Assembly: GCA_964561085.1 (NCBI GenBank) | Contig: CAZLNP010000001.1 | Coordinates: 147,201 to 211,200 of the forward strand | Direction of reading: 5' to 3' | DNA length: 64,000 nt | Source of the DNA: an uncultured Candidatus Saccharibacteria bacterium | GTDB lineage: Bacteria; Patescibacteriota; Doudnabacteria; UBA920 | Shown: in pieces, positions 782 to 61,555 of the stretch | How the letters are laid out: every line of letters begins with the position of its first letter | Position numbering within the stretch: the stretch's first letter is position 1 | Notes under the pieces: model-generated | What the model was told of the DNA's origin: nothing | The model's input: only the letters and a program-made list of their open reading frames with translations | Database searches by the model: none | Made by a program: the position numbers and the translations under genes

Positions 782-3700
782 TTATTCTAATCCGAGAGAA
801 TTATCGGAAGAGGGTTCTTCAGTGGAGCTTGGTTCTTCTGGTTCTGTTGATGGTTCATCTATATTATTACCGCCATCAGTAGGCTCTTCGTCCTGATCTG
901 ACGAACCAGTTGAATCTGTTGAATCGCTCGATTCATCTACTTGGGGTTCATCGTTAGGTTGAGAATCGGAACCATCCGAACTAGAGTCATCGTAGAAATA
1001 TTCATCAGTTTGATCCCCTGCCACTTCACCTGTATCTAGCTCTATCTGATCTCCTGCTGAGATTACCAATCTTGGATTCTTTACCGCCAAAGCTATCCAG
1101 CTAAATGTGAGATCTTGAGGAGCCGGTTGGTTTAAGATAATTCGGAAGCCATTCTGACTCTTTCTTGTAACTAAGTGCTGTACATTACTACCAAACAATA
1201 ACTCAATGTTAGAGTCATCAATAATGTTCATGGCGTCTATCACTTCTTGGTTTACCTCTTCAAGAAGCTGTTCATCTTGCTCTTGGGTAATTGCCACACT
1301 AACAATTGGTTGTTCTAAGTATGAGCGCTCAAATGTTACGTCTACGTATCTGTCGCCTTGTAAAATTTTGGCATAGCCAGCTGTGTCTGAATTAAAGAAC
1401 GGGCGACCAATGAATACAAGGTCAGAAAGCACATCTATACTTCTGCCAGAGCTTCCAATCGTCAGCACTTGTAAGCCATCTGCCACAATGTTCGGAGAAA
1501 TTACTTCGAACGTTGCACTTAGTCTATCTGTAAGAATTTGAGAAGATACACCGACATCCTTCTTTTGAGTCTTCATTTGCTTTAGGAAAGCAAGGATTCT
1601 ATCTTGTTTAGTTTCTCTGAGTTCTAAATCGCCGCTTTCAAGAAGAACAGAATCTTCGTCTGGCATTTCTTCTAGGCCCATTTCTGCAATAGCGGCGTCC
1701 ATTTCTTCCATCAGCTGTTCGATTGGTAAACCGTTAAAGCTGCCAAGTTCTACGAACATCATGACTTTGCCACACATTTCCAAATCAACACTTGGCTCTT
1801 CTACTACTTCGTCAGCATCTGCAGTAGTTTCTTCGGTTTCACTTGTGGATTCTTCTGTTGACTCATTTGAAAGATCTTCAGATTCATTATTAGTTTGAAT
1901 TGAACACACTTCTTGCTGTTCTGCAGACAGGCTAGAATCAAGAGCTCTTCCAATTGCTAGCCCAGAACTTGTCGCACGCATAGCATGGCCTTCAATAGAG
2001 GAAGCTGTTAAGTAATCCCCTGGTTGTACCGGACCATTTTCATCGCTAAACTTTACAGGAATACGTCCAGTCAATGCTATTGGATAACCATCTGCTAATC
2101 TTTCTCCCAAAATAATTGCCGGTCTACTCGCCACCACACCAAGCACTCTCTGATTATTTTCACCAGTGTAAAGTACTACGTCGTCACCGTCACCGTTTGG
2201 ATCGATGGAAACTACATCCCCCGCTTGTAGGTTATTAGTAGAGTAATAGTACTCAGCCAAATCGGCTCCACCAGTGAATCCAACTTCTGTACCCAAACTA
2301 CCAACCGCTGTAACACCATCCAAAACTAACTCGTTTCTAATGTTATATAGCTGGTTTGTTATATAATCTAATCCTTGTCCTAACTGAACGTTTTCTGCTT
2401 GGGACCACATATGCTCATCAGTAGCCATTAATAGAGAGCGCTTAGAAAGATCTATGGAACGAATATCATCTGAGTCAGAATCCGTATCTGTCCATTCAGT
2501 TCCATGATCATCAGTCTTTTTAGCGTCGCCGTGGAAAATATCTGCAATTACGTTTGGACCTGCTTGGTGGTTATAACAAGTTACGCCACCAGTACCAGTT
2601 GTACTGTCTGTACCAACACAAAGCAATCTTGCTTCTCCGAGTAAAGCTTTGTTCGTTAATCCAATTGCAACTACAGCATTAGAATCGCCATATAGAGCTT
2701 CTGGGTCGACCTCGAAGTCCGTAGTTGTGTCTGGAGTAACATCAAATGGAATTGCCACTGTCATTGTGTCCGTGGTATTAGAAATTACACGACGTGTTTG
2801 GCCGGCACCAGTACCGCTGGTCAAGTTAACAATTAAACCTGCAAATTCATTCGGGAACCAAGTTTCTCCCGTGTCTGTAATTGTTGTTGAGGTAGCAGCT
2901 GTAGCGTTGTCTACTGTAATTACACGCTTGTTTACCAAAGGACGAGCATCGTTAAATAGACGGCGTTGTTGAGCATTACTTACTGTGGCAAGTGTTGTAG
3001 TTTGCACCGCAAATGTAAAGTCATCGATAGAACCGTTCCAGAAGTTTGAGCCAGCTGCACAGTTCACAGAACCTGCACATGAAGCACCAAGGCTAACAAT
3101 TTGGCTTCCGTCAAAGGTCGTAGCTAAGGCTGTAGCAGTACTTAAGTTAATTGCTTGCCCATCTAGATACACGTCAACGTCACCCGCGTTTGTGCGAGAA
3201 ATTGTTATCATATGCCATTGGTTATCATTATACAATTGAGATGTTGTTGCGGTAATGTCATAGGTGGTGCCTAAAGTCCAGCTGGCATCATCATCTACTC
3301 CGACACGGATTGTTCCAGTAGTTGTCATAGTAGCATCTACACAACCTGTTGCTGCTGTACCCGCTGCGACATAACATTTACTAAAGAGTACTTCAGGTGC
3401 TCCAGGGAGACTAGTAGAATGTTTAAACCACATACTGACCGTCCACCCAACGGTAGATATATTGAATGCCGTATCTACGTCACAAGTACCGTCCGAGGTT
3501 GTATCAGAACATAAGTATCCAGCGCCACCTAAGTCAACAGCTTTACCACGAACACCACTCACCCCTTGTGTGTAGGTTCCTTTGTAAGTCATATCATTGT
3601 CTACAATAGTGTCGCTGTCTGCAGTTGTTGTTGTGTCATCCAAAGGAAGAGCAACGTCAATATACTGATGCTTCATCATACTTTGACGATTTGTATCGAA

Positions 3701-6700
3701 CCACTTTACCCAGCCTGTTGCTGTTGTAGTGTGGCCATGCAATTCAGTCAAACCTAGACTGTGTCCAACATAAATTAAATCTTCTGTTTCTAGGGCAGAT
3801 GATGCACGTTCAATTACATCAATCGCGTCTGGTGCACCTACTATCATGTTTGGTGTAGTTTTAGAAAGTGCTGGTGTTGTAGATTGATCCCATACCGCGC
3901 TGTAAGCTCCATTAATTTCATTAATTTTGTCTGCATCAAAGTTATCCCAACGTTCCAATTGGTCCAGAGTAGTATTTAGAGCGTACATTCTACCAGTCTT
4001 AGTCAAATGCACAGCAGTGTAATCATTATCCGTTGCATCGGAATATTGAATCAGCTGACTTGTAGCCATGTTAATAACAGTAAGGCCAGAATTTGTTGCC
4101 AATGCAATATAAGTACCTCCATACCCTGGAGTTAAGTTAGTAGCAGCACCAATAGTAGACGCAGTGATTGTAATGTTAGGGTTAACAACAAACACATCAT
4201 TAATTGTTTCCCAACCAGCAATGGTACCAGTTACTGCAATGTCTAAGTTGGTATTATTATCTACGTTATAATTCACAGCCCCGTTACGACTTCCAATTCC
4301 AACGTCTGCACCAGAACGATCTGTAGCATCGTAGTTCCACATACGATCGTTAATAAAGTCGAAAGCGTAAAGCCCGTCACCCGCTCCATTAGAACCGTCG
4401 GTTGTACCAACATAGATAACACCATTCATAGCGGTTACGCTGGAAGGATCATTGCTAGTATCTACACCCAAAGCGTACCCACTAGCGTTTTGGCTAAACT
4501 TCATCCACAATGTATTGTTAGAAGTATCAAAAATATACAAAGCATTAGCAGTTACAGCCAAGGTTGCTTTTCTTGGAAAAGAGGAAGCACCACAACGATC
4601 GTCAGTTGAAATGTTACAAATTGAACCGACTGCGTCTTTTGTTTCGTTATACCAAGATAGTCTTTCTGTTGTTGCCCAGTCTACCCAGCGACCACCATCA
4701 CTGTCAGCGGTAGTATCATACAAGAACACATCTTTTACACCAGCTAGTGCTGTTAAGTTTCTAGCACCAATAGTAGTGATGTCGCCGTATACATCTAAGT
4801 CCCCTCTATTAATAGCTTCACCAATTTGAAGCATGCTAGTAGGAGCTGCTGTTCCAATACCAACATAACCATTCATGAATGCAGCGGCATACTCTATGCC
4901 AGCACCCGAGCCAGCATCTATGTATGCACCATAACTTGTTACATTTGTAGTTGATGCACCAGTTATTTTTAAGCCAGCATAAGTACAAGCACCAGTAGCA
5001 CAAGCAGTCATAGTAGGAGCTTCAATATTTAAACCATTAATTTGTTTAGTTCCAGCGCCAGATGTGTTAACAGTAATTGCTAGATTCAAACCATTAGTGA
5101 TTGATTCACTTGAAGCGTTAGTAGAGGCGTTAGTATATGTCAAATTTACTAGACTGCCAGTTTGAGTTGCACCTGGGTCATAAGAAGCGCCAGTAACATT
5201 AATTGCGTTTCCTCGAGTCAATACAGTACCCATGTTAATCTCTATAACTTTTCCAGTAGTTAAAGAAGTGGCATTAAATGTTGCGAGCCTGCCAGTGGCA
5301 GTAGAGTTGGCTGTTAAGTTTAACAATCCACCTGATCCAGTGTAAGCACCAGAAGCTTGAAGTTGAACAATGCCGTTAGACACAGAACCAGTTGTTGCAG
5401 ATGTAACTTTAAAAGCAGACCCTGAAGTAAGCCCTGTTCCTGAAGAAGTGACAGTTAAGTTATCTGTTGTAGTTGTTGCACCCCAATCCAAAGTTTGAAC
5501 AGTTGTACCCATCGCAACAGCGCCATTACCTGCAGCATCGCCGATTGTATCGAAAGTAGTAGAGCCGCCACCAGCGATTGTACAATCTGTACGAGTTGAA
5601 CCAGCGTTGTCTACACAAGCAACTCCTGCACCTGTAAAGTTCAAGGTAGCGCGCTGTGTTAAGCTACCAGCTTCATCTTGAATAGTGGTGTATCCACCAC
5701 CAGCTGAACAAGCACCCCAAAGAATTGTAGTAGCATTTGCTTTCAAACATTCTGTATCTGAACCACGAGCCAAACGGGTTGAGTTAGTGCCATTATGGTA
5801 CAGTAAGTCACCATTAGTTGTGAGTTGAGATAGATTGTTAATTGCATTCTGCGATGTTGATGCTCCAGTACCACCATCTGCAACTGCAATATCAGTTCCG
5901 TTCCATATGCCTGTAGTAACAGTGCCATTGTTAGCTGTAACTACAAGACCGTTAAAGCTAGTTGCTCCAGTGATTGCACCAGACAGTGCAAGTGAACTCA
6001 ATGTTCCGACGCTCGTCAAAGAAGAAGCAGTCACATTAGCAGCTAAGGTTGACCCTGAAATATCTGCTGCTGCGTTAACAGTTATATTAGCATTTGGGAA
6101 TGTGTAAGTTTTATCTGATCCTGTTAAGTCTGCGGTTGTAAAAATACCAGCGAAAGTCGCACCAGTTCCAGTAGTTTGAGGTTTAATATTGATTGTGTCT
6201 GTATTAGCAGTTGTAGATGAGGCTACAATTGAACCTGTAGTCGTAGCAATAAGATTAACATTCTGAGCGGCTCCACCTGCGGTAAATGATAGAGCACCAG
6301 TTCCGGTGATTGAACCATTCGCTGTTCCAGTACCGCCAAGCGAAACTGGAAGCTGTGCATTCACTGACCATGTTCCAGAAGAAATACTTGGTACACCTGT
6401 TGATGCTGAAGTGTTAATTCCAGTACCACCGTAGGTACCAGCAATAGCAGTCCCATTCCAAACACCAGTTGTAATTGTTCCGATGGAAACTAAAGATGAC
6501 AAAGTTGTCACACCTGATGTAATTAAAGTTCCTGTGGTTGGAAGTGTCACGTTTGTAGCACCAGTAGTTGTAAGTGTAAGAGCGTTTGCTCCCGCTGTTG
6601 TAAATGCTGCCGCTGTATTAATGTTGCCGCCAAGGGTAATTGTGTTGCTACCATTGTTTACTCCTGTGCCACCATAAGTTGAGCCGACCACTGTTCCCTG

Positions 6701-7558
6701 CCAAGCTCCTGCAGTAACAACTCCGCTTGCGTTTACACTAAATGCATTTGCGGTTCCAGAAGTTAATGTTCCAGATACATCTACATTTCCTGTTATAGCT
6801 AAATCACTTCCAGAAGGTGCAATTGTTAAATCGCCTCCGGATGAGGTTGTGAAGGAAGAATAGTTTGCTGCGTCGTAGCCAACTCTTAATTGTTCAGTTG
6901 TAGATGTGACATGCAATTTTGCAGAAGTAGTGGCTGTTCCAATTCCTACATTACCACCAGTTAAGTTCCAACCAGCTCCGCTTCCTACAGAAGTCAAAGT
7001 TGTGAATCCGTTAGATGCTACTCCCAAAGTTGCGCGGTTAGAGCCATCATAATTAAATGCTGCTTGGGTGGCGGTATTAGTAATGTCCACCAGACCTGTG
7101 CCCTTAAGATTGCTTGCCAAGAAAGCGACTGGAACTGTTCCAATCTTCTTTCGTGGAGTCATTTCTCCATCCCAACTAGGTGTCCCTGTTCCTCCGATGT
7201 TTACACTCAAAAATAAAGTCTGATTAAAATCTAGACTACCAAAAGGGTTAACCTCTCCCAACATCACACTAAACACCCCATTAGTGACTGTCACTTTATC
7301 TCCAGCAGTACGAGTTTCGGTCCAAAGAAGACTTCCTCCACTTACAGCGTCGTAAAGTTTGAACTCCATGTTATAGTCACCATCCGCAACAGCGACATTG
7401 CTACCATTTGTTAGTTTTCCCTGGTAGTTAATCTCTGCATTATAAGCAGCAATGGCCGAACGTTCATAATTGAAAGTAGATGCTACTGTAGCCAATACAA
7501 CTAGAAGGCCTATTAACGCGAAAGCTATGCGCACGGTAGGAGTAAAGAGTTTAATCAT
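782..7558 (-). CDS. Giant surface protein (about 2,258 aa). N-terminal signal/anchor helix, long Thr/Gly/Ser/Asn-rich repeat region, central LamG/ConA-like lectin-fold domain, C-terminal acidic Asp/Glu/Ser/Pro-rich tail.
   Basis: Uninterrupted 6.8 kb ORF. The ORF track starts at 7591 (MRKCEQ...). The internal Met at 7558 (MIKLFTPTVRIAFALIGLLVVLATVAS) gives a typical signal/anchor and avoids overlap with the upstream HTH gene. LamG-like signature '...WTVSMWFKH...NQWHMITISRTNAGDVDVYLDGQ' is encoded around 3050-3450. Confidence 0.8.
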   Translation of the reverse strand: MIKLFTPTVRIAFALIGLLVVLATVASTFNYERSAIAAYNAEINYQGKLTNGSNVAVADGDYNMEFKLYDAVSGGSLLWTETRTAGDKVTVTNGVFSVMLGEVNPFGSLDFNQTLFLSVNIGGTGTPSWDGEMTPRKKIGTVPVAFLASNLKGTGLVDITNTATQAAFNYDGSNRATLGVASNGFTTLTSVGSGAGWNLTGGNVGIGTATTSAKLHVTSTTEQLRVGYDAANYSSFTTSSGGDLTIAPSGSDLAITGNVDVSGTLTSGTANAFSVNASGVVTAGAWQGTVVGSTYGGTGVNNGSNTITLGGNINTAAAFTTAGANALTLTTTGATNVTLPTTGTLITSGVTTLSSLVSIGTITTGVWNGTAIAGTYGGTGINTSASTGVPSISSGTWSVNAQLPVSLGGTGTANGSITGTGALSFTAGGAAQNVNLIATTTGSIVASSTTANTDTINIKPQTTGTGATFAGIFTTADLTGSDKTYTFPNANITVNAAADISGSTLAANVTASSLTSVGTLSSLALSGAITGATSFNGLVVTANNGTVTTGIWNGTDIAVADGGTGASTSQNAINNLSQLTTNGDLLYHNGTNSTRLARGSDTECLKANATTILWGACSAGGGYTTIQDEAGSLTQRATLNFTGAGVACVDNAGSTRTDCTIAGGGSTTFDTIGDAAGNGAVAMGTTVQTLDWGATTTTDNLTVTSSGTGLTSGSAFKVTSATTGSVSNGIVQLQASGAYTGSGGLLNLTANSTATGRLATFNATSLTTGKVIEINMGTVLTRGNAINVTGASYDPGATQTGSLVNLTYTNASTNASSESITNGLNLAITVNTSGAGTKQINGLNIEAPTMTACATGACTYAGLKITGASTTNVTSYGAYIDAGSGAGIEYAAAFMNGYVGIGTAAPTSMLQIGEAINRGDLDVYGDITTIGARNLTALAGVKDVFLYDTTADSDGGRWVDWATTERLSWYNETKDAVGSICNISTDDRCGASSFPRKATLAVTANALYIFDTSNNTLWMKFSQNASGYALGVDTSNDPSSVTAMNGVIYVGTTDGSNGAGDGLYAFDFINDRMWNYDATDRSGADVGIGSRNGAVNYNVDNNTNLDIAVTGTIAGWETINDVFVVNPNITITASTIGAATNLTPGYGGTYIALATNSGLTVINMATSQLIQYSDATDNDYTAVHLTKTGRMYALNTTLDQLERWDNFDADKINEINGAYSAVWDQSTTPALSKTTPNMIVGAPDAIDVIERASSALETEDLIYVGHSLGLTELHGHTTTATGWVKWFDTNRQSMMKHQYIDVALPLDDTTTTADSDTIVDNDMTYKGTYTQGVSGVRGKAVDLGGAGYLCSDTTSDGTCDVDTAFNISTVGWTVSMWFKHSTSLPGAPEVLFSKCYVAAGTAATGCVDATMTTTGTIRVGVDDDASWTLGTTYDITATTSQLYNDNQWHMITISRTNAGDVDVYLDGQAINLSTATALATTFDGSQIVSLGASCAGSVNCAAGSNFWNGSIDDFTFAVQTTTLATVSNAQQRRLFNDARPLVNKRVITVDNATAATSTTITDTGETWFPNEFAGLIVNLTSGTGAGQTRRVISNTTDTMTVAIPFDVTPDTTTDFEVDPEALYGDSNAVVAIGLTNKALLGEARLLCVGTDSTTGTGGVTCYNHQAGPNVIADIFHGDAKKTDDHGTEWTDTDSDSDDIRSIDLSKRSLLMATDEHMWSQAENVQLGQGLDYITNQLYNIRNELVLDGVTAVGSLGTEVGFTGGADLAEYYYSTNNLQAGDVVSIDPNGDGDDVVLYTGENNQRVLGVVASRPAIILGERLADGYPIALTGRIPVKFSDENGPVQPGDYLTASSIEGHAMRATSSGLAIGRALDSSLSAEQQEVCSIQTNNESEDLSNESTEESTSETEETTADADEVVEEPSVDLEMCGKVMMFVELGSFNGLPIEQLMEEMDAAIAEMGLEEMPDEDSVLLESGDLELRETKQDRILAFLKQMKTQKKDVGVSSQILTDRLSATFEVISPNIVADGLQVLTIGSSGRSIDVLSDLVFIGRPFFNSDTAGYAKILQGDRYVDVTFERSYLEQPIVSVAITQEQDEQLLEEVNQEVIDAMNIIDDSNIELLFGSNVQHLVTRKSQNGFRIILNQPAPQDLTFSWIALAVKNPRLVISAGDQIELDTGEVAGDQTDEYFYDDSSSDGSDSQPNDEPQVDESSDSTDSTGSSDQDEEPTDGGNNIDEPSTEPEEPSSTEEPSSDNSLGLE

Positions 7559-7802
7559 ACACAACCTCCGCTTTTGTTCGCATTTGCGCACTGCGAGAAT
7601 GCTTCACTTTTTGTTGTTTCAAATACAATAAAACCGCCCCACGTGTAGTGAGCCAGTTTCTAGCTATCTTCATTGCTTTTAGATGTCCTGTTCTCGCTCT
7701 TAAACTCAAGTACTCGGCTGAGTATGGAGTAAAGTTTGCAGCTTCAGAGATTGAGATTAAATCTCCTGAGGCTAAAAAGGACTTCTTTTCCCTTTCTGAC
7801 AT
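7551..7802 (-). CDS. Small helix-turn-helix DNA-binding protein (83 aa, excisionase/MerR-like HTH), immediately upstream of the giant protein gene.
   Basis: ORF with the segment 'ISISEAANFTPYSAEYLSLRARTGHLKAMKIARNWLTTRGAV', which resembles an excisionase-family HTH. Its stop codon lies 2-4 nt from the proposed giant-gene start. Confidence 0.5.
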   Translation of the reverse strand: MSEREKKSFLASGDLISISEAANFTPYSAEYLSLRARTGHLKAMKIARNWLTTRGAVLLYLKQQKVKHSRSAQMRTKAEVVYD

Positions 7803-27283: not shown

Positions 27284-27670
27284 ATGATTTTGTTTATTGA
27301 TACAAGTGAATTCAGCGCCCTTACTTTCGCGATCATTAATGGTGCGACTGTTAAGATTAGTTCTTCTGAGGTTGCATTCAATGAGAACTATAAAACCAAT
27401 TTGCTCCTTGAAAAGTTTTTGAAGCATCAAAAAGTTGATATGCGCGAATTGAAAAAAATAATTGTTTGTAGTGGTCCTGGTTCATTCACAGGAATAAGGG
27501 TTGGGGTTTCCCTAGCTCAGGCTCTGGGGTTTGCTTTGAACATACCAGTTATTGCAATTCCTAAATCTAAAATCCCAGAGGATGTTCGTAAACTGAATAG
27601 CGTGAAAGGTGGTAAAAGTTTGGTAGTAAACTATGGGCAGAAGCCGAACATCACCAAGGCTAAGAAATAA
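27284..27670 (+). CDS. tsaB: Short TsaB/YeaZ-like protein (128 aa; canonical TsaB is about 230 aa).
   Basis: 'VCSGPGSFTGIRVGVSLAQALGFALNIPV' matches the TsaB/Kae1-family signature. The protein ends after the first ASKHA half. Confidence 0.55.
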   Translation: MILFIDTSEFSALTFAIINGATVKISSSEVAFNENYKTNLLLEKFLKHQKVDMRELKKIIVCSGPGSFTGIRVGVSLAQALGFALNIPVIAIPKSKIPEDVRKLNSVKGGKSLVVNYGQKPNITKAKK

Positions 27671-41310: not shown

Positions 41311-41748
41311 ATGAAAGCCTTAACCCCTAAAACCAAGCCTAAACCGAAGATGGGAACAAAGCTCCTCCTTTCGGAAGTGGAATCTGCTGCGAAGAAATTT
41401 GCTAAGGGAATCAAGGGTGGAGAGATATTTGCTCTCATTGGGGAACTCGGCAGTGGCAAAACAACATTTACCAAAGCTTTAGGTAAAGAGCTAGGAATCA
41501 GACAAACGATCTCGAGCCCAACATTTGTGATGATGCAGCAATTCGAGATATCTAGCAGGAAACCAAAACTGTTTTTATATCACCTAGACCTTTACCGAAC
41601 CAAAAATTTTAAAGAAGTTAAATCTCTTGGAATTACTGAGTGGTGGGGTCACCCAGAAACTGTGACTGTAATTGAGTGGGCAGACAAAATCATGAAAGAC
41701 TTACCCTCTAACGCAACAATAATTTATTTAACCCGTGATAAAGAATAA
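41311..41748 (+). CDS. tsaE: tRNA threonylcarbamoyladenosine biosynthesis ATPase TsaE (YjeE family, 145 aa).
   Basis: 'GELGSGKTTFTKAL', 'SPTF', 'LYHLDLYR' motifs. Confidence 0.8.
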   Translation: MKALTPKTKPKPKMGTKLLLSEVESAAKKFAKGIKGGEIFALIGELGSGKTTFTKALGKELGIRQTISSPTFVMMQQFEISSRKPKLFLYHLDLYRTKNFKEVKSLGITEWWGHPETVTVIEWADKIMKDLPSNATIIYLTRDKE

Positions 41749-52235: not shown

Positions 52236-52586
52236 ATGCTTTCCCAAAAACACCGCCTCTCGAAGTCAGCTGAAGTTAAAAAGACAACAGCCCGAGGGCG
52301 GGGTTTTTTTAATCCATACTTCGTATTAAAAACATTGCCAGGGACAGAGCCGGCTAAAGTAACTGTGGTCGTATCTGTTAAAGTTTCTAAAAAAGCAGTA
52401 GATCGCAACCGTTTGAAGAGAGTTATTAGAGAAACTATTAGACCAGACATATTGAAGTTTAAGCCAGGTAGCTATGCAATTTTAGTTAAGCCTAGCGCAA
52501 TGAAGATCACCTCAGCAGAATTACGCGAGCAGATCCGCAAAGGGCTAATTGCCAGCAAGACTTTGAAACAAACCCAGAAAATATAG
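52236..52586 (+). CDS. rnpA: Ribonuclease P protein component (116 aa).
   Basis: Basic protein with 'KKAVDRNRLKRVIRETIR' (RNR motif region). Position after rpmH. Confidence 0.85.
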   Translation: MLSQKHRLSKSAEVKKTTARGRGFFNPYFVLKTLPGTEPAKVTVVVSVKVSKKAVDRNRLKRVIRETIRPDILKFKPGSYAILVKPSAMKITSAELREQIRKGLIASKTLKQTQKI

Positions 52587-58688: not shown

Positions 58689-59183
58689 CTACTTCTTCCA
58701 CACTGCGGCGCAAAGTGCGATTGCTAATGCATCTGCTGCGTCATCCGGCTTAGGAATACTTTTTAATTTGAAAGTTTGTTGTACCATTCGCTGAACTTGT
58801 TTTTTGTCAGCTTTCCCGTAACCACACAAAGTACTTTTTACTTGCAAAGGTGTGAATTCATAAATGGGTAGCTTGGCTTGATTGAGCGCTAGGAGCGCAA
58901 CACCTCTTGCTTGAGAGACGGTCATTACAGTCCGCTGATTATTTTGGAAGAAAAGTTTTTCAATTCCTGCACAATCTGGTTTATGTTTTTTTATAACCGC
59001 GCTTAGATCTTCAAAAAGAATTTGTAATCGCTGAGAATCAGAATCATCCTTACTTGTGCTAATGACTCCAAATTCTAAAATTTCATATTCCTGATGACTC
59101 TTGTTTTTTGACCCACCAGTAATTTTCCGAATAATTCCAAAACCTGTAGTGGCGGTTCCCGGGTCAATTCCTAAATAAATCAT
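58689..59183 (-). CDS. ruvC: Crossover junction endodeoxyribonuclease RuvC (164 aa).
   Basis: 'MIYLGIDPGTATTGFGII' RNase H-fold N-terminus. Acidic catalytic residues are conserved. Confidence 0.9.
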   Translation of the reverse strand: MIYLGIDPGTATTGFGIIRKITGGSKNKSHQEYEILEFGVISTSKDDSDSQRLQILFEDLSAVIKKHKPDCAGIEKLFFQNNQRTVMTVSQARGVALLALNQAKLPIYEFTPLQVKSTLCGYGKADKKQVQRMVQQTFKLKSIPKPDDAADALAIALCAAVWKK

Positions 59184-59190
59184 TTTGTTT

Positions 59191-59736
59191 CTAGCTAATA
59201 TTTGTAAACACTGCAGTTACGTCGTCGTCATCTTCAAGAGCGCTGTATAATTTCTCAGCTTTCTCTAAATCTTCATCGCTTAGCTCTAAAGGCATGGTGC
59301 TTTCCAGCTCGCCTGTCTCCTCATTTTTCTTAAACTGCCAAGCTACGCTACCTTGAGCTCCAAGATTGCCGTTATTGCGCATAAATACAGTCTTGATATT
59401 TTGCACAGTGCGGTTTTTACTGTCAGTTATGGCCTCAATTAGGAAAGCTGATCCCCCAGGCCCATATCCTTCGTAAACAGCCTCTTCGAGGGCTGCGCTA
59501 CCATCTTGGCCCAATCCCTTCTTAATAGCGCGTTCTATGTTGTCGTTCGGCATCGAAAGAGCGCGGGCTTTATCAATTTCTAGGCGAAGGCGGAAGTTTA
59601 AAGCAGGATCACCGCTATTGCCTTCTTTGACGGCTACGGAGATTTTCTTGGAAAGCTTGCCAAAAATAGCGCCTTTCTTAGCATCAGCAGCCCCTTTTTG
59701 ACGTTTAATTGTTGACCATTTTGAATGTCCAGACAT
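59191..59736 (-). CDS. yebC: YebC/PmpR-family probable transcriptional regulator, short form (181 aa; typical is about 240 aa).
   Basis: '[32 protein letters not shown]' is a YebC N-terminus. The protein lacks part of the C-terminal region. Confidence 0.85.
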
Positions 59737-59758: not shown

Positions 59759-60427
59759 TTATTTCTTAAATGATAGTAAAAAGGTGATCTCCCCTTTTAT
59801 ACTTTGCTTGGTTTTTAGTTTCTCAAGAATCTCTGTTGGTGTGCCCGCAATGTATTCTTCATGCATCTTTGTTAGCTCACGGGCCACGACACAATTTACC
59901 TCGGGGAAATTCTTCTCTATATATTGTAAAGTTTTAACGATGCGTTGTGGGGACTCGTAAGTTATTAACGTTGCCTCTGCGACCTTGGCTTGATTAATAA
60001 GCTCGACAACTTTATGTTCAGTCTTTGCAAAGAATCCTGCGAACATGTATCTGTCGGTAGGTAGTCCTGATGCAGATAAAGCTGTGGTCGCTGCATTCGC
60101 TCCAGGTAGTGCAACTACTTCAATGTTAGACTCACGTGCCGCGCGGACCAAACGGAAACCGGGATCAGAAATTCCTGGAGTACCGGCATCGCTTACTAAG
60201 CAAGCAGTTTCTGTTGAAAGGCGCGCGATATACTTTTCTGTAACTAATCTTTCATTATGATCGGCAAATTGCACAATTGGTTTTTTGGGTAGACCAAGAA
60301 GTTTTATTAATTTTCCAGTAGTAAGAGGGTTCTCAGCAATAATAAAATCGCACGAGCTCAGTTGCTCCTGCGCGCGTGCTGTAATATCTCCTAAATTTCC
60401 TAATGGTGTTGGAACAATGTATAACAT
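59759..60427 (-). CDS. rsmI: 16S rRNA (cytidine1402-2'-O)-methyltransferase RsmI-like (tetrapyrrole methylase fold, 222 aa).
   Basis: N-terminus 'MLYIVPTPLGNLGDITARA' and 'TPGISDPG' motifs. Confidence 0.85.
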   Translation of the reverse strand: MLYIVPTPLGNLGDITARAQEQLSSCDFIIAENPLTTGKLIKLLGLPKKPIVQFADHNERLVTEKYIARLSTETACLVSDAGTPGISDPGFRLVRAARESNIEVVALPGANAATTALSASGLPTDRYMFAGFFAKTEHKVVELINQAKVAEATLITYESPQRIVKTLQYIEKNFPEVNCVVARELTKMHEEYIAGTPTEILEKLKTKQSIKGEITFLLSFKK

Positions 60428-60448
60428 GAGTTTATGTAAAAGTTTCGA

Positions 60449-60745
60449 CTAGCGATCTTTCAATTCTAGACCAAATAGTTCTTCGATGATATCGTATTCG
60501 AGTTTCAACTTGTCGCGGTAATCAGAAAGCTCTTCTCTTTCATCCCCAGTTGCGTTAAACCATTCATCGTATGTAGCTTTTAATTCTTCATCTAGGGTTT
60601 GGCAAAAAGCGTAGGCTTCAGTTTCAGTTTGAGGAGAAGATTCCATCCAGTCTCCGTACGTAATCCCTAACTTGGATTCATACTTATCTTCAAAGATTTC
60701 TTGCTGCTTTTCTTTATCTATTTCTCTGGCCATTTCTTCGTCCAT
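60449..60745 (-). CDS. Small acidic hypothetical protein (about 98 aa).
   Basis: The track ORF (to 60787) would overlap the tRNA. The internal Met 'MDEEMAREID' at 60745 avoids this. Strongly acidic and helical composition. Confidence 0.45.
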   Translation of the reverse strand: MDEEMAREIDKEKQQEIFEDKYESKLGITYGDWMESSPQTETEAYAFCQTLDEELKATYDEWFNATGDEREELSDYRDKLKLEYDIIEELFGLELKDR

Positions 60746-60751
60746 ATTTTC

Positions 60752-60828
60752 TGGTGCGCGCGCATGGATTCGAACCATGGACCGCAAAGGTATAAGCTTT
60801 GTGCTCTAACCAGCTGAGCTACGCGCGC
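60752..60828 (-). tRNA. tRNA with anticodon UAU, predicted to read AUA (Ile). 77 nt including the encoded CCA.
   Basis: Manual cloverleaf from the reverse complement: GCGCGCG-UA-GCUC-AGCUGGUU-AGAGC-A-CAAAG-CUUAUAC-CUUUG-CGGUC-CAUGG-UUCGAAU-CCAUG-CGCGCGC-A-CCA. All four stems are fully paired. U33, A37 and a canonical T-loop are present. Confidence 0.8.
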
Positions 60829-60952
60829 ATATTTATTCAATTACCTAGGTATTATAGGCATTTTAGACAGCTAAGGCAATAACTGTTTGCCTTGACTAAA
60901 AGCCCTTTATAAGACATAATTATCGCTACACCAATTCAGGAGGAAAGAGAGG

Positions 60953-61555
60953 ATGATTTACGAAGCTGTCGGTAATCTTTGTGCCGTGAATTTCAAAGAA
61001 CTCCAACTGCCTATCAGCGACGAGCAAGCATTGGAGATTTTATTCAATCTAGGTTTTGAAACGCAAGACGTAGATATTATAGCCCTTGCGTATGGTTGCA
61101 TAGACCTTTCGCAATACAAGAGAGGGGCTACAATCGATATGGCTCCTGGAGTTGTTGACTGCTCAACGTTCACCAATTGGTTGTATTTCCAAAAAGGTGT
61201 AAAGCTCCCTCGTTATTCTATTGATCAGCGTGATCGTCTGAAAATAGTTGTTGGCGAAGAAGATCTACGACCTGGCGACCTTGTTTTTACAAGTGGACGC
61301 TTTAACTATTATTGGGATGATCCAAGTGATGGGGTTGGACATACTGGGATTTATACTGGCAATAATACAGTCATTCATGCTGCTGGTCCGGAGGTTGGAG
61401 TTATTGAAGACCCTTTCACTCCTTTTGCTAAAAACTTAAGAGGGATTAGAAGAGTGTTTGATGACTTCAATTCAGTTGTGACAATTAAGTCGCCCCCGAG
61501 CCGTGTGGTTGGGGATTCACAGGAATTTAGGTGGATCATCTTGCAACATTGTTGA
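60953..61555 (+). CDS. NlpC/P60-family (C40) peptidoglycan peptidase-like protein without a signal peptide (200 aa).
   Basis: Catalytic Cys in 'DCSTFTNWLYF', His in 'GHTGIY', third polar His in 'VIHAAG'. No N-terminal hydrophobic segment. Confidence 0.65.
   Translation: MIYEAVGNLCAVNFKELQLPISDEQALEILFNLGFETQDVDIIALAYGCIDLSQYKRGATIDMAPGVVDCSTFTNWLYFQKGVKLPRYSIDQRDRLKIVVGEEDLRPGDLVFTSGRFNYYWDDPSDGVGHTGIYTGNNTVIHAAGPEVGVIEDPFTPFAKNLRGIRRVFDDFNSVVTIKSPPSRVVGDSQEFRWIILQHC

Follow-up and report, generated by a model that had tools for sequence, protein, structure and literature searches.

Telling AUA from AUG is the textbook difficulty of the genetic code, for which almost every bacterium relies on the essential enzyme TilS. 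Only a few genomes, from Mycoplasma, Bifidobacterium, and Neorickettsia, are known to depart from this rule. Mycoplasma mobile has neither tilS nor a tRNA-Ile(CAT); U34 of its tRNA-Ile2(UAU) is unmodified, its IleRS carries Arg865 where tilS-bearing bacteria have Trp, and on its own ribosome this tRNA is barred from reading AUG and binds AUA much better (PMC3575796). An isoleucyl-tRNA synthetase adapted to U34 would be expected to have either Arg or Lys at the equivalent of E. coli W905 or to be of the eukaryote type, the latter being found in Bifidobacterium and Neorickettsia, which are without tilS and use a TAT tRNA-Ile as AUA decoder (PMC3575796, PMC8450103). In a Bacillus subtilis suppressor of a tilS deletion, G34 of tRNA1-Ile was changed to U34; this U34 stays unmodified, and on the organism's own ribosome the tRNA has a high affinity for AUA and a low one for AUG (PMC3919564). 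Lactobacillus casei, Cyanothece PCC 7424, and Ferrimonas balearica hold a TAT tRNA-Ile together with tilS, and redundant AUA decoding by both routes has been proposed for them (PMC3575796). Outside bacteria, a UAU anticodon serves AUA in the small or unusual genomes of the archaea Nanoarchaeum equitans and Korarchaeum cryptofilum (PMC8450103). As to frequency, nine species without tilS and 371 distinct TAT sequences from a metagenome database have been noted (PMC3575796), the tRNAscan-SE 2.0 paper counted 17 complete bacterial genomes in which tRNA-Ile(UAU) replaces tRNA-Ile2(CAU) (PMC8450103), and a 2026 preprint still terms such cases rare (10.64898/2026.02.03.703510).

Here we analysed a stretch of 64,000 nucleotides (the window) that belongs to the chromosome of a member of the Patescibacteria (CPR), most likely of the class Doudnabacteria, and that contains a tRNA-Ile gene with a TAT anticodon. 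We propose, at a probability of roughly 0.85, that this gene has descended vertically and that its product, a functional tRNA-Ile whose UAU anticodon is encoded in the genome, decodes AUA in this Doudnabacteria-like bacterium. The claim of the sequence-only reading that an encoded UAU is uncommon holds for cultured bacteria, given the 17 genomes cited above. As bacterial tRNA-Ile(UAU) is already established, what is new is the clade-wide CPR example. With M. mobile it shares a bacterial host, an encoded TAT, an A37 suited to t6A, a small genome, and AUA meaning Ile. In M. mobile, however, the loss of tilS and of the CAT tRNA, Arg865, the plain U34, and the rejection of AUG were all demonstrated, whereas the present tRNA is known from its gene sequence; it spans a whole candidate class, not a few species, and its C38 is invariant. 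The B. subtilis suppressor also reads AUA with UAU, but it is a laboratory mutant of tRNA-Ile(GAU), whereas the gene described here is natural and conserved. Compared with the canonical tRNA-Ile2(CAU), the task of reading AUA as Ile is the same, but there C34 needs TilS, while here T34 is encoded and invariant.

The tRNA gene and its genomic context

ARAGORN found a single tRNA in the window, a tRNA-Ile on the minus strand at 60752-60828 with the anticodon tat at position 35. Rfam likewise counted one (RF00005, 70.7 bits against a gathering score of 29, E = 2e-13), matched at full length over model positions 1-71. The gene is 77 nt long with its CCA end encoded, and its minus-strand sequence is GCGCGCGTAGCTCAGCTGGTTAGAGCACAAAGCTTATACCTTTGCGGTCCATGGTTCGAATCCATGCGCGCGCACCA. 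Arranged by arm, the RNA reads GCGCGCG-UA-GCUC-AGCUGGUUA-GAGC-A-CAAAG-CUUAUAC-CUUUG-CGGUC-CAUGG-UUCGAAU-CCAUG-CGCGCGC-A-CCA, with Watson-Crick pairing at 21 of 21 stem pairs and A73 as the discriminator. The anticodon loop is C32 U33 U34 A35 U36 A37 C38 (CUUAUAC), and the anticodon lies at 60792-60794, where ATA on the plus strand corresponds to TAT on the tRNA strand. The coordinates, cloverleaf, anticodon, and loop that had been claimed from a manual fold were thus all correct, ARAGORN placing the anticodon at the same position; the strand, which had been left unstated, is minus. A tRNA identical to this one is present in an independent metagenome contig (L102), in which the adjoining proteins are 89-100% identical to those of the window, and T34 is therefore no assembly error. 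The minimum-free-energy fold of the window sequence alone did not recover the D and anticodon arms; single tRNA sequences often fail in this way in the central arms, and the covariation described below carries more weight. Searches by blastn for the nearest E. coli tRNA gave uninformative weak matches to tRNA-Val and tRNA-Arg (E ~1e-3).

The identity set of E. coli IleRS reportedly includes A73, U12:A23, C4:G69, A37 (as t6A), A38, and C29:G41, according to Nureki et al. in 1994. The window tRNA has the Ile-type body features A73, U12:A23, C4:G69, and A37, with C38 in place of A38 and A29:U41 in place of C29:G41. Because of these two differences, its recognition must differ somewhat from that in E. 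coli. The D arm, T arm, and discriminator presumably resemble those of E. coli tRNA-Ile2(CAU), in which position 38 is usually A, in contrast to the C found here. Typically t6A is formed on an A37 that adjoins U36, and A37 of this tRNA would accordingly be expected to carry that modification. The sequence-only reading had called A37 consistent with t6A and had noted tsaB and tsaE homologues in the window, and NCBIfam matched both of these components of the t6A37 machinery on the plus strand: a short TsaB homologue at 27284-27670 (TIGR03725, 72.4 bits against a cut-off of 69.3) and the ATPase TsaE at 41311-41748 (TIGR00150, 100.9 bits against 60.1).

NCBIfam and Pfam scans identified the window as an origin region, with dnaA, dnaN, a recF-like gene, rnpA, yidC, jag, and gyrA. 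Further genes include rpoB, rpoC, polA, uvrB, ruvA, ruvB, ruvC, murE, and that for a PilB-type ATPase, in addition to those for TsaB and TsaE. The GC content is about 40%, and many ORFs have no family match. The window proteins are encoded on a contig of 216,756 bp. One of these, on the minus strand at 782-7591, encodes 2269 amino acids and has no Pfam match; in an independent Logan contig (L185) it is called as a 2258-aa gene, likewise with no Pfam match on record.

A sigma-70-type promoter, TTGCCT-N17-TATAAT, was predicted by promoter scan (10 of 12 matches) on the minus strand at 60851-60879. The end of its −10 hexamer lies 22 nt upstream of position 1 of the tRNA, which suggests a 5′ leader of about 15 nt that RNase P would remove. 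The RNase P protein that may act on this leader is encoded in the window by rnpA, on the plus strand at 52236-52586 (PF00825, E = 9e-20). Downstream of the tRNA on the same strand follow a small ORF of 98 amino acids (60449-60745) with no Pfam match, and then, as assigned by NCBIfam, rsmI (59759-60427), a yebC-like gene (59191-59736), and ruvC (58689-59183). The intergenic gaps here are 7-22 nt, and no terminator-like site was predicted in 60300-61100. The tRNA, small ORF, rsmI, yebC-like gene, and ruvC probably form one transcription unit, with the tRNA as the first gene under the control of its own putative promoter. The ATG of the 98-aa ORF is 6 nt past the CCA of the tRNA and is preceded by no Shine-Dalgarno sequence. 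A 3′ cut beside the encoded CCA would leave an mRNA that is almost leaderless, and processing of the tRNA may thus create a nearly leaderless message for the small protein. In several close relatives the ORF starts 5-14 nt past the CCA. The YebC-like ORF (181 aa) covers only profile positions 1-137 of 245, with the same 181-aa call made in an independent Logan contig (L001), and the TsaB ORF (128 aa) covers only positions 1-92 of 212; each may be either a truncated gene or a form shortened in CPR bacteria.

Conservation among Doudnabacteria-like relatives

Relatives were collected as 60 loci from a scan with RsmI, one genome per GTDB species, and about 40 of these, each 12 kb, are from Doudnabacteria-like Patescibacteria. 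RsmI of the closest relative is 99% identical to that of the window. In 28 of the approximately 40 Patescibacteria loci, ARAGORN placed a tRNA-Ile(tat) close to rsmI, over a range of RsmI identity from 99% down to 53%, and the distance between the two genes was at most about 4 kb and mostly a few hundred bases. Every rsmI-linked copy in the related loci had TAT and none had CAT, and no tRNA-Ile(tat) was found by ARAGORN in the non-CPR loci of the same scan. According to tblastn, 27 related loci have the 98-aa ORF in the interval from the tRNA to rsmI, with identities of 50-95%. In 20 of the 28 loci a TATAAT hexamer precedes the tRNA by 19-55 nt, and in the closest relatives TTGCY is located exactly 17 nt further upstream.

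The related copies and the window tRNA comprise 20 distinct sequences. Loop positions 32-38, the D arm, A73, U12:A23, and A37 are invariant among them, and C4:G69 is kept in 19. The cloverleaf was 100% paired over its 420 cells, and changes on both sides of a pair, i.e., compensatory changes, were found at 11 of the 21 pairs. None of 500 shuffles reached the observed level, and sliding the partners by 1-3 columns reduced pairing to 13-57%. The identity of each tRNA to the window copy correlated with the RsmI identity (Spearman 0.67, p = 9e-5), so that divergence of the tRNA tracks that of RsmI, as fits vertical descent. Taken together, the conservation across the clade, the covariation, the tracking of RsmI, and the identical copy in the metagenome contig L102 argue for a functional gene that is neither a pseudo-tRNA, nor an assembly error, nor mobile cargo. 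On the evidence of these alignments, the gene is under strong purifying selection clade-wide and is ancestral to the clade. Its fixed place in about 28 species-level genomes, the predicted promoter, and the invariant loop indicate that the UAU route is stable and long-lived and is no recent accident.

Position 38 is C in every copy of tRNA-Ile(UAU), whereas the 29:41 pair, A:U in the window, varies in the family. The Leu(UAA) and Cys(GCA) tRNAs of the clade carry A38. The invariant C38 is the sole unusual feature of this tRNA, and if lysidine has been abandoned, the C32/C38 loop might tune the tRNA against AUG reading or to a changed IleRS.

The relative with 99% identical RsmI (L002, tRNA at 5118-5194) differs from the window tRNA (60752-60828) at 4 of 77 positions. 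All four are accounted for by two compensated base pairs: 6:67, with C:G in the window tRNA against U:A in L002, and 50:64, with A:U against C:G, respectively. In two other loci, a partial copy of the 3′ half of the tRNA (GGACTATGCCTTTGTGGTCCGAGGCT) lies directly downstream of the tRNA (L009, 5571-5610; L020, 4481-4520), and the conserved promoter is absent upstream. The partial copies may be the scar of an element integrated at the tRNA.

Reading of AUA and the lysidine route

ATA accounts for 209 of the 19,343 codons in the window (10.8 per 1000) and for 15% of the Ile codons. It is avoided in rpoB and rpoC, with 2 occurrences each among about 80-90 Ile codons. At window ATA codons, orthologues have Ile in 57% of cases, Val in 13%, Leu in 13%, and Met in 4%; as controls, ATT and ATC correspond to Ile in 67% and ATG to Met in 61%. 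Since the ATA profile is near those of ATT and ATC and unlike that of ATG, AUA means Ile in this genome, as a minor sense codon. The codon would be read through a U34:A pair by a tRNA that has been charged by a U34-accepting IleRS, and by analogy with M. mobile and the B. subtilis suppressor, AUG would be read poorly.

In a genome this small, tRNA-Ile(UAU) would probably be the main or only AUA decoder, with a sole-decoder role at near even odds. The explanation that competes most strongly with a sole-decoder role is redundancy, in which TilS and a lysidine-modified tRNA-Ile2(CAU) persist in the clade and tRNA-Ile(UAU) is a second reader of AUA; we put this somewhat short of an even chance. 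About 98% of annotated bacterial genomes encode TilS (PMC12514573), tilS coexists with a TAT gene in some bacteria (PMC3575796), and a metagenome contig (L095) has a CPR-like tRNA(UAU) along with an initiator tRNA and an elongator-type CAT tRNA. A dispensable duplicate is disfavoured, however, by the fact that TAT and the entire anticodon loop are strictly retained even where RsmI identity has fallen to 53%, and genomes of the class are very small, at about 0.7 Mb each for two Doudnabacteria bins (supplement of PMC8672522). Strict conservation in such small genomes makes a sole-decoder role plausible.

We searched for components of the lysidine route. NCBIfam and Pfam scans recognised neither tilS nor ileS among the approximately 46 ORFs of the window. 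By tblastn with E. coli TilS and IleS, no tilS or ileS was found in the window, the 60 genome loci, or the 80 metagenome loci listed, apart from a fragment in the contig L085; the only matches were to related class I tRNA synthetases in Chlorobi loci and to the IleRS-like N-terminus in L085. ARAGORN detected no CAT tRNA in the window or in the approximately 40 related 12-kb loci, which cover at most a few percent of each genome. As an argument against redundancy, the lack of tilS and of a CAT tRNA in the window and the Doudnabacteria-like loci is weak, these being a small share of the genome. The supplements of two groundwater CPR papers that list Doudnabacteria bins contain no data on tilS (K04075). 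A literature search returned no report that links CPR bacteria with lysidine or tRNA-Ile(UAU), and nothing relevant on tRNA modification or anticodons in Patescibacteria.

Slightly under even, in our estimate, is the chance that the Doudnabacteria-like Patescibacteria are a class-level CPR lineage without TilS and lysidine, in which AUA is read by tRNA-Ile(UAU) only. If so, no known bacterial clade with lysidine-independent AUA decoding would be deeper or richer in species, a large bacterial branch could dispense with TilS, and many natural variants would be at hand to study how IleRS and the ribosome handle U34. If tilS is present, the clade adds another example of redundancy in AUA reading. 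With either outcome, the principle of UAU decoding is already known.

An unlikely alternative is that the tRNA works only because its U34 is modified so as to pair with A alone, unlike that of M. mobile. The models would be either eukaryotic tRNA-Ile(UAU), which likewise uses UAU for AUA in another domain and has modified anticodon uridines, or a novel uridine derivative. In the eukaryotic tRNA the modification of the anticodon uridine is pseudouridine. Modification of that UAU anticodon is documented (PMC8007984), and a modified U34 was left possible for Mycoplasma suis by the authors of PMC3575796. Against it, U34 was plain in both bacterial cases that were examined (PMC3575796, PMC3919564), and no U34-modifying enzyme was recognised among the scanned proteins of the window, itself a small part of the genome. 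The view of the sequence-only reading that an encoded UAU implies either special U34 modification or relaxed AUA/AUG discrimination is for the same reason too narrow, as the cases studied combine an unmodified U34 with a strong preference for AUA over AUG (PMC3575796, PMC3919564).

Very improbable, finally, is that the gene was brought in by a phage or mobile element, as accessory cargo, or that it is a pseudo-tRNA which arose from a CAT gene by a recent C-to-T change: tRNA-Ile genes are frequent on phages, and the partial copies in L009 and L020 are a possible integration scar, but the housekeeping neighbours at the replication origin, the synteny of the 28 loci, and the RsmI-coupled divergence ruled out, on the loci compared here, a tRNA borne by a mobile element, the promoter is conserved as well, and no related locus has CAT at the site. 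Phage origin was also rejected, the phage matches being only 76-83% and reflecting generic tRNA similarity.

tRNA(UAU) genes in metagenomes

One metagenome scan with the loop pattern CTYATAC yielded at least 120 matching stretches, 80 of which were obtained as loci. Among the 80 loci listed, 77 had TAT and 3 had CAT, which indicates that tRNA(UAU) genes are common in uncultured bacteria.

Many of these belong to a separate tRNA(UAU) family that has the same loop, CUUAUAC, but an acceptor stem that begins with C1:G72 (CCGCCCU...AGGGCGG, then A73), a pair unusual in a bacterial elongator tRNA; most members have no encoded CCA. The family includes L067-L069, L075, L076, L079, L088, L090, L093, L094, L097, L099, and many more. 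Three contigs of this family also carry a predicted tRNA-Ser with the anticodon ACT (L076, 5601-5688; L090, 10258-10345; L132, 2667-2755), which adjoins, in divergent orientation, a tRNA-Ser(GCT). A tRNA-Ser with A34 is unexpected in bacteria.

In the metagenome contig L085 (36-676), a tRNA(UAU) lies directly 5′ of the IleRS-like N-terminus (tblastn with E. coli IleS, E = 1.9e-18), and the contig stops short of the C-terminal anticodon-binding domain of IleRS. The ileS gene of the Doudnabacteria-like genome lies outside the window. In L097 (1479-2441), an rsmI homologue (39% identity to the window protein) is followed downstream by a tRNA(UAU) of the C1:G72 family, an adjacency that could reflect either chance or an old linkage.
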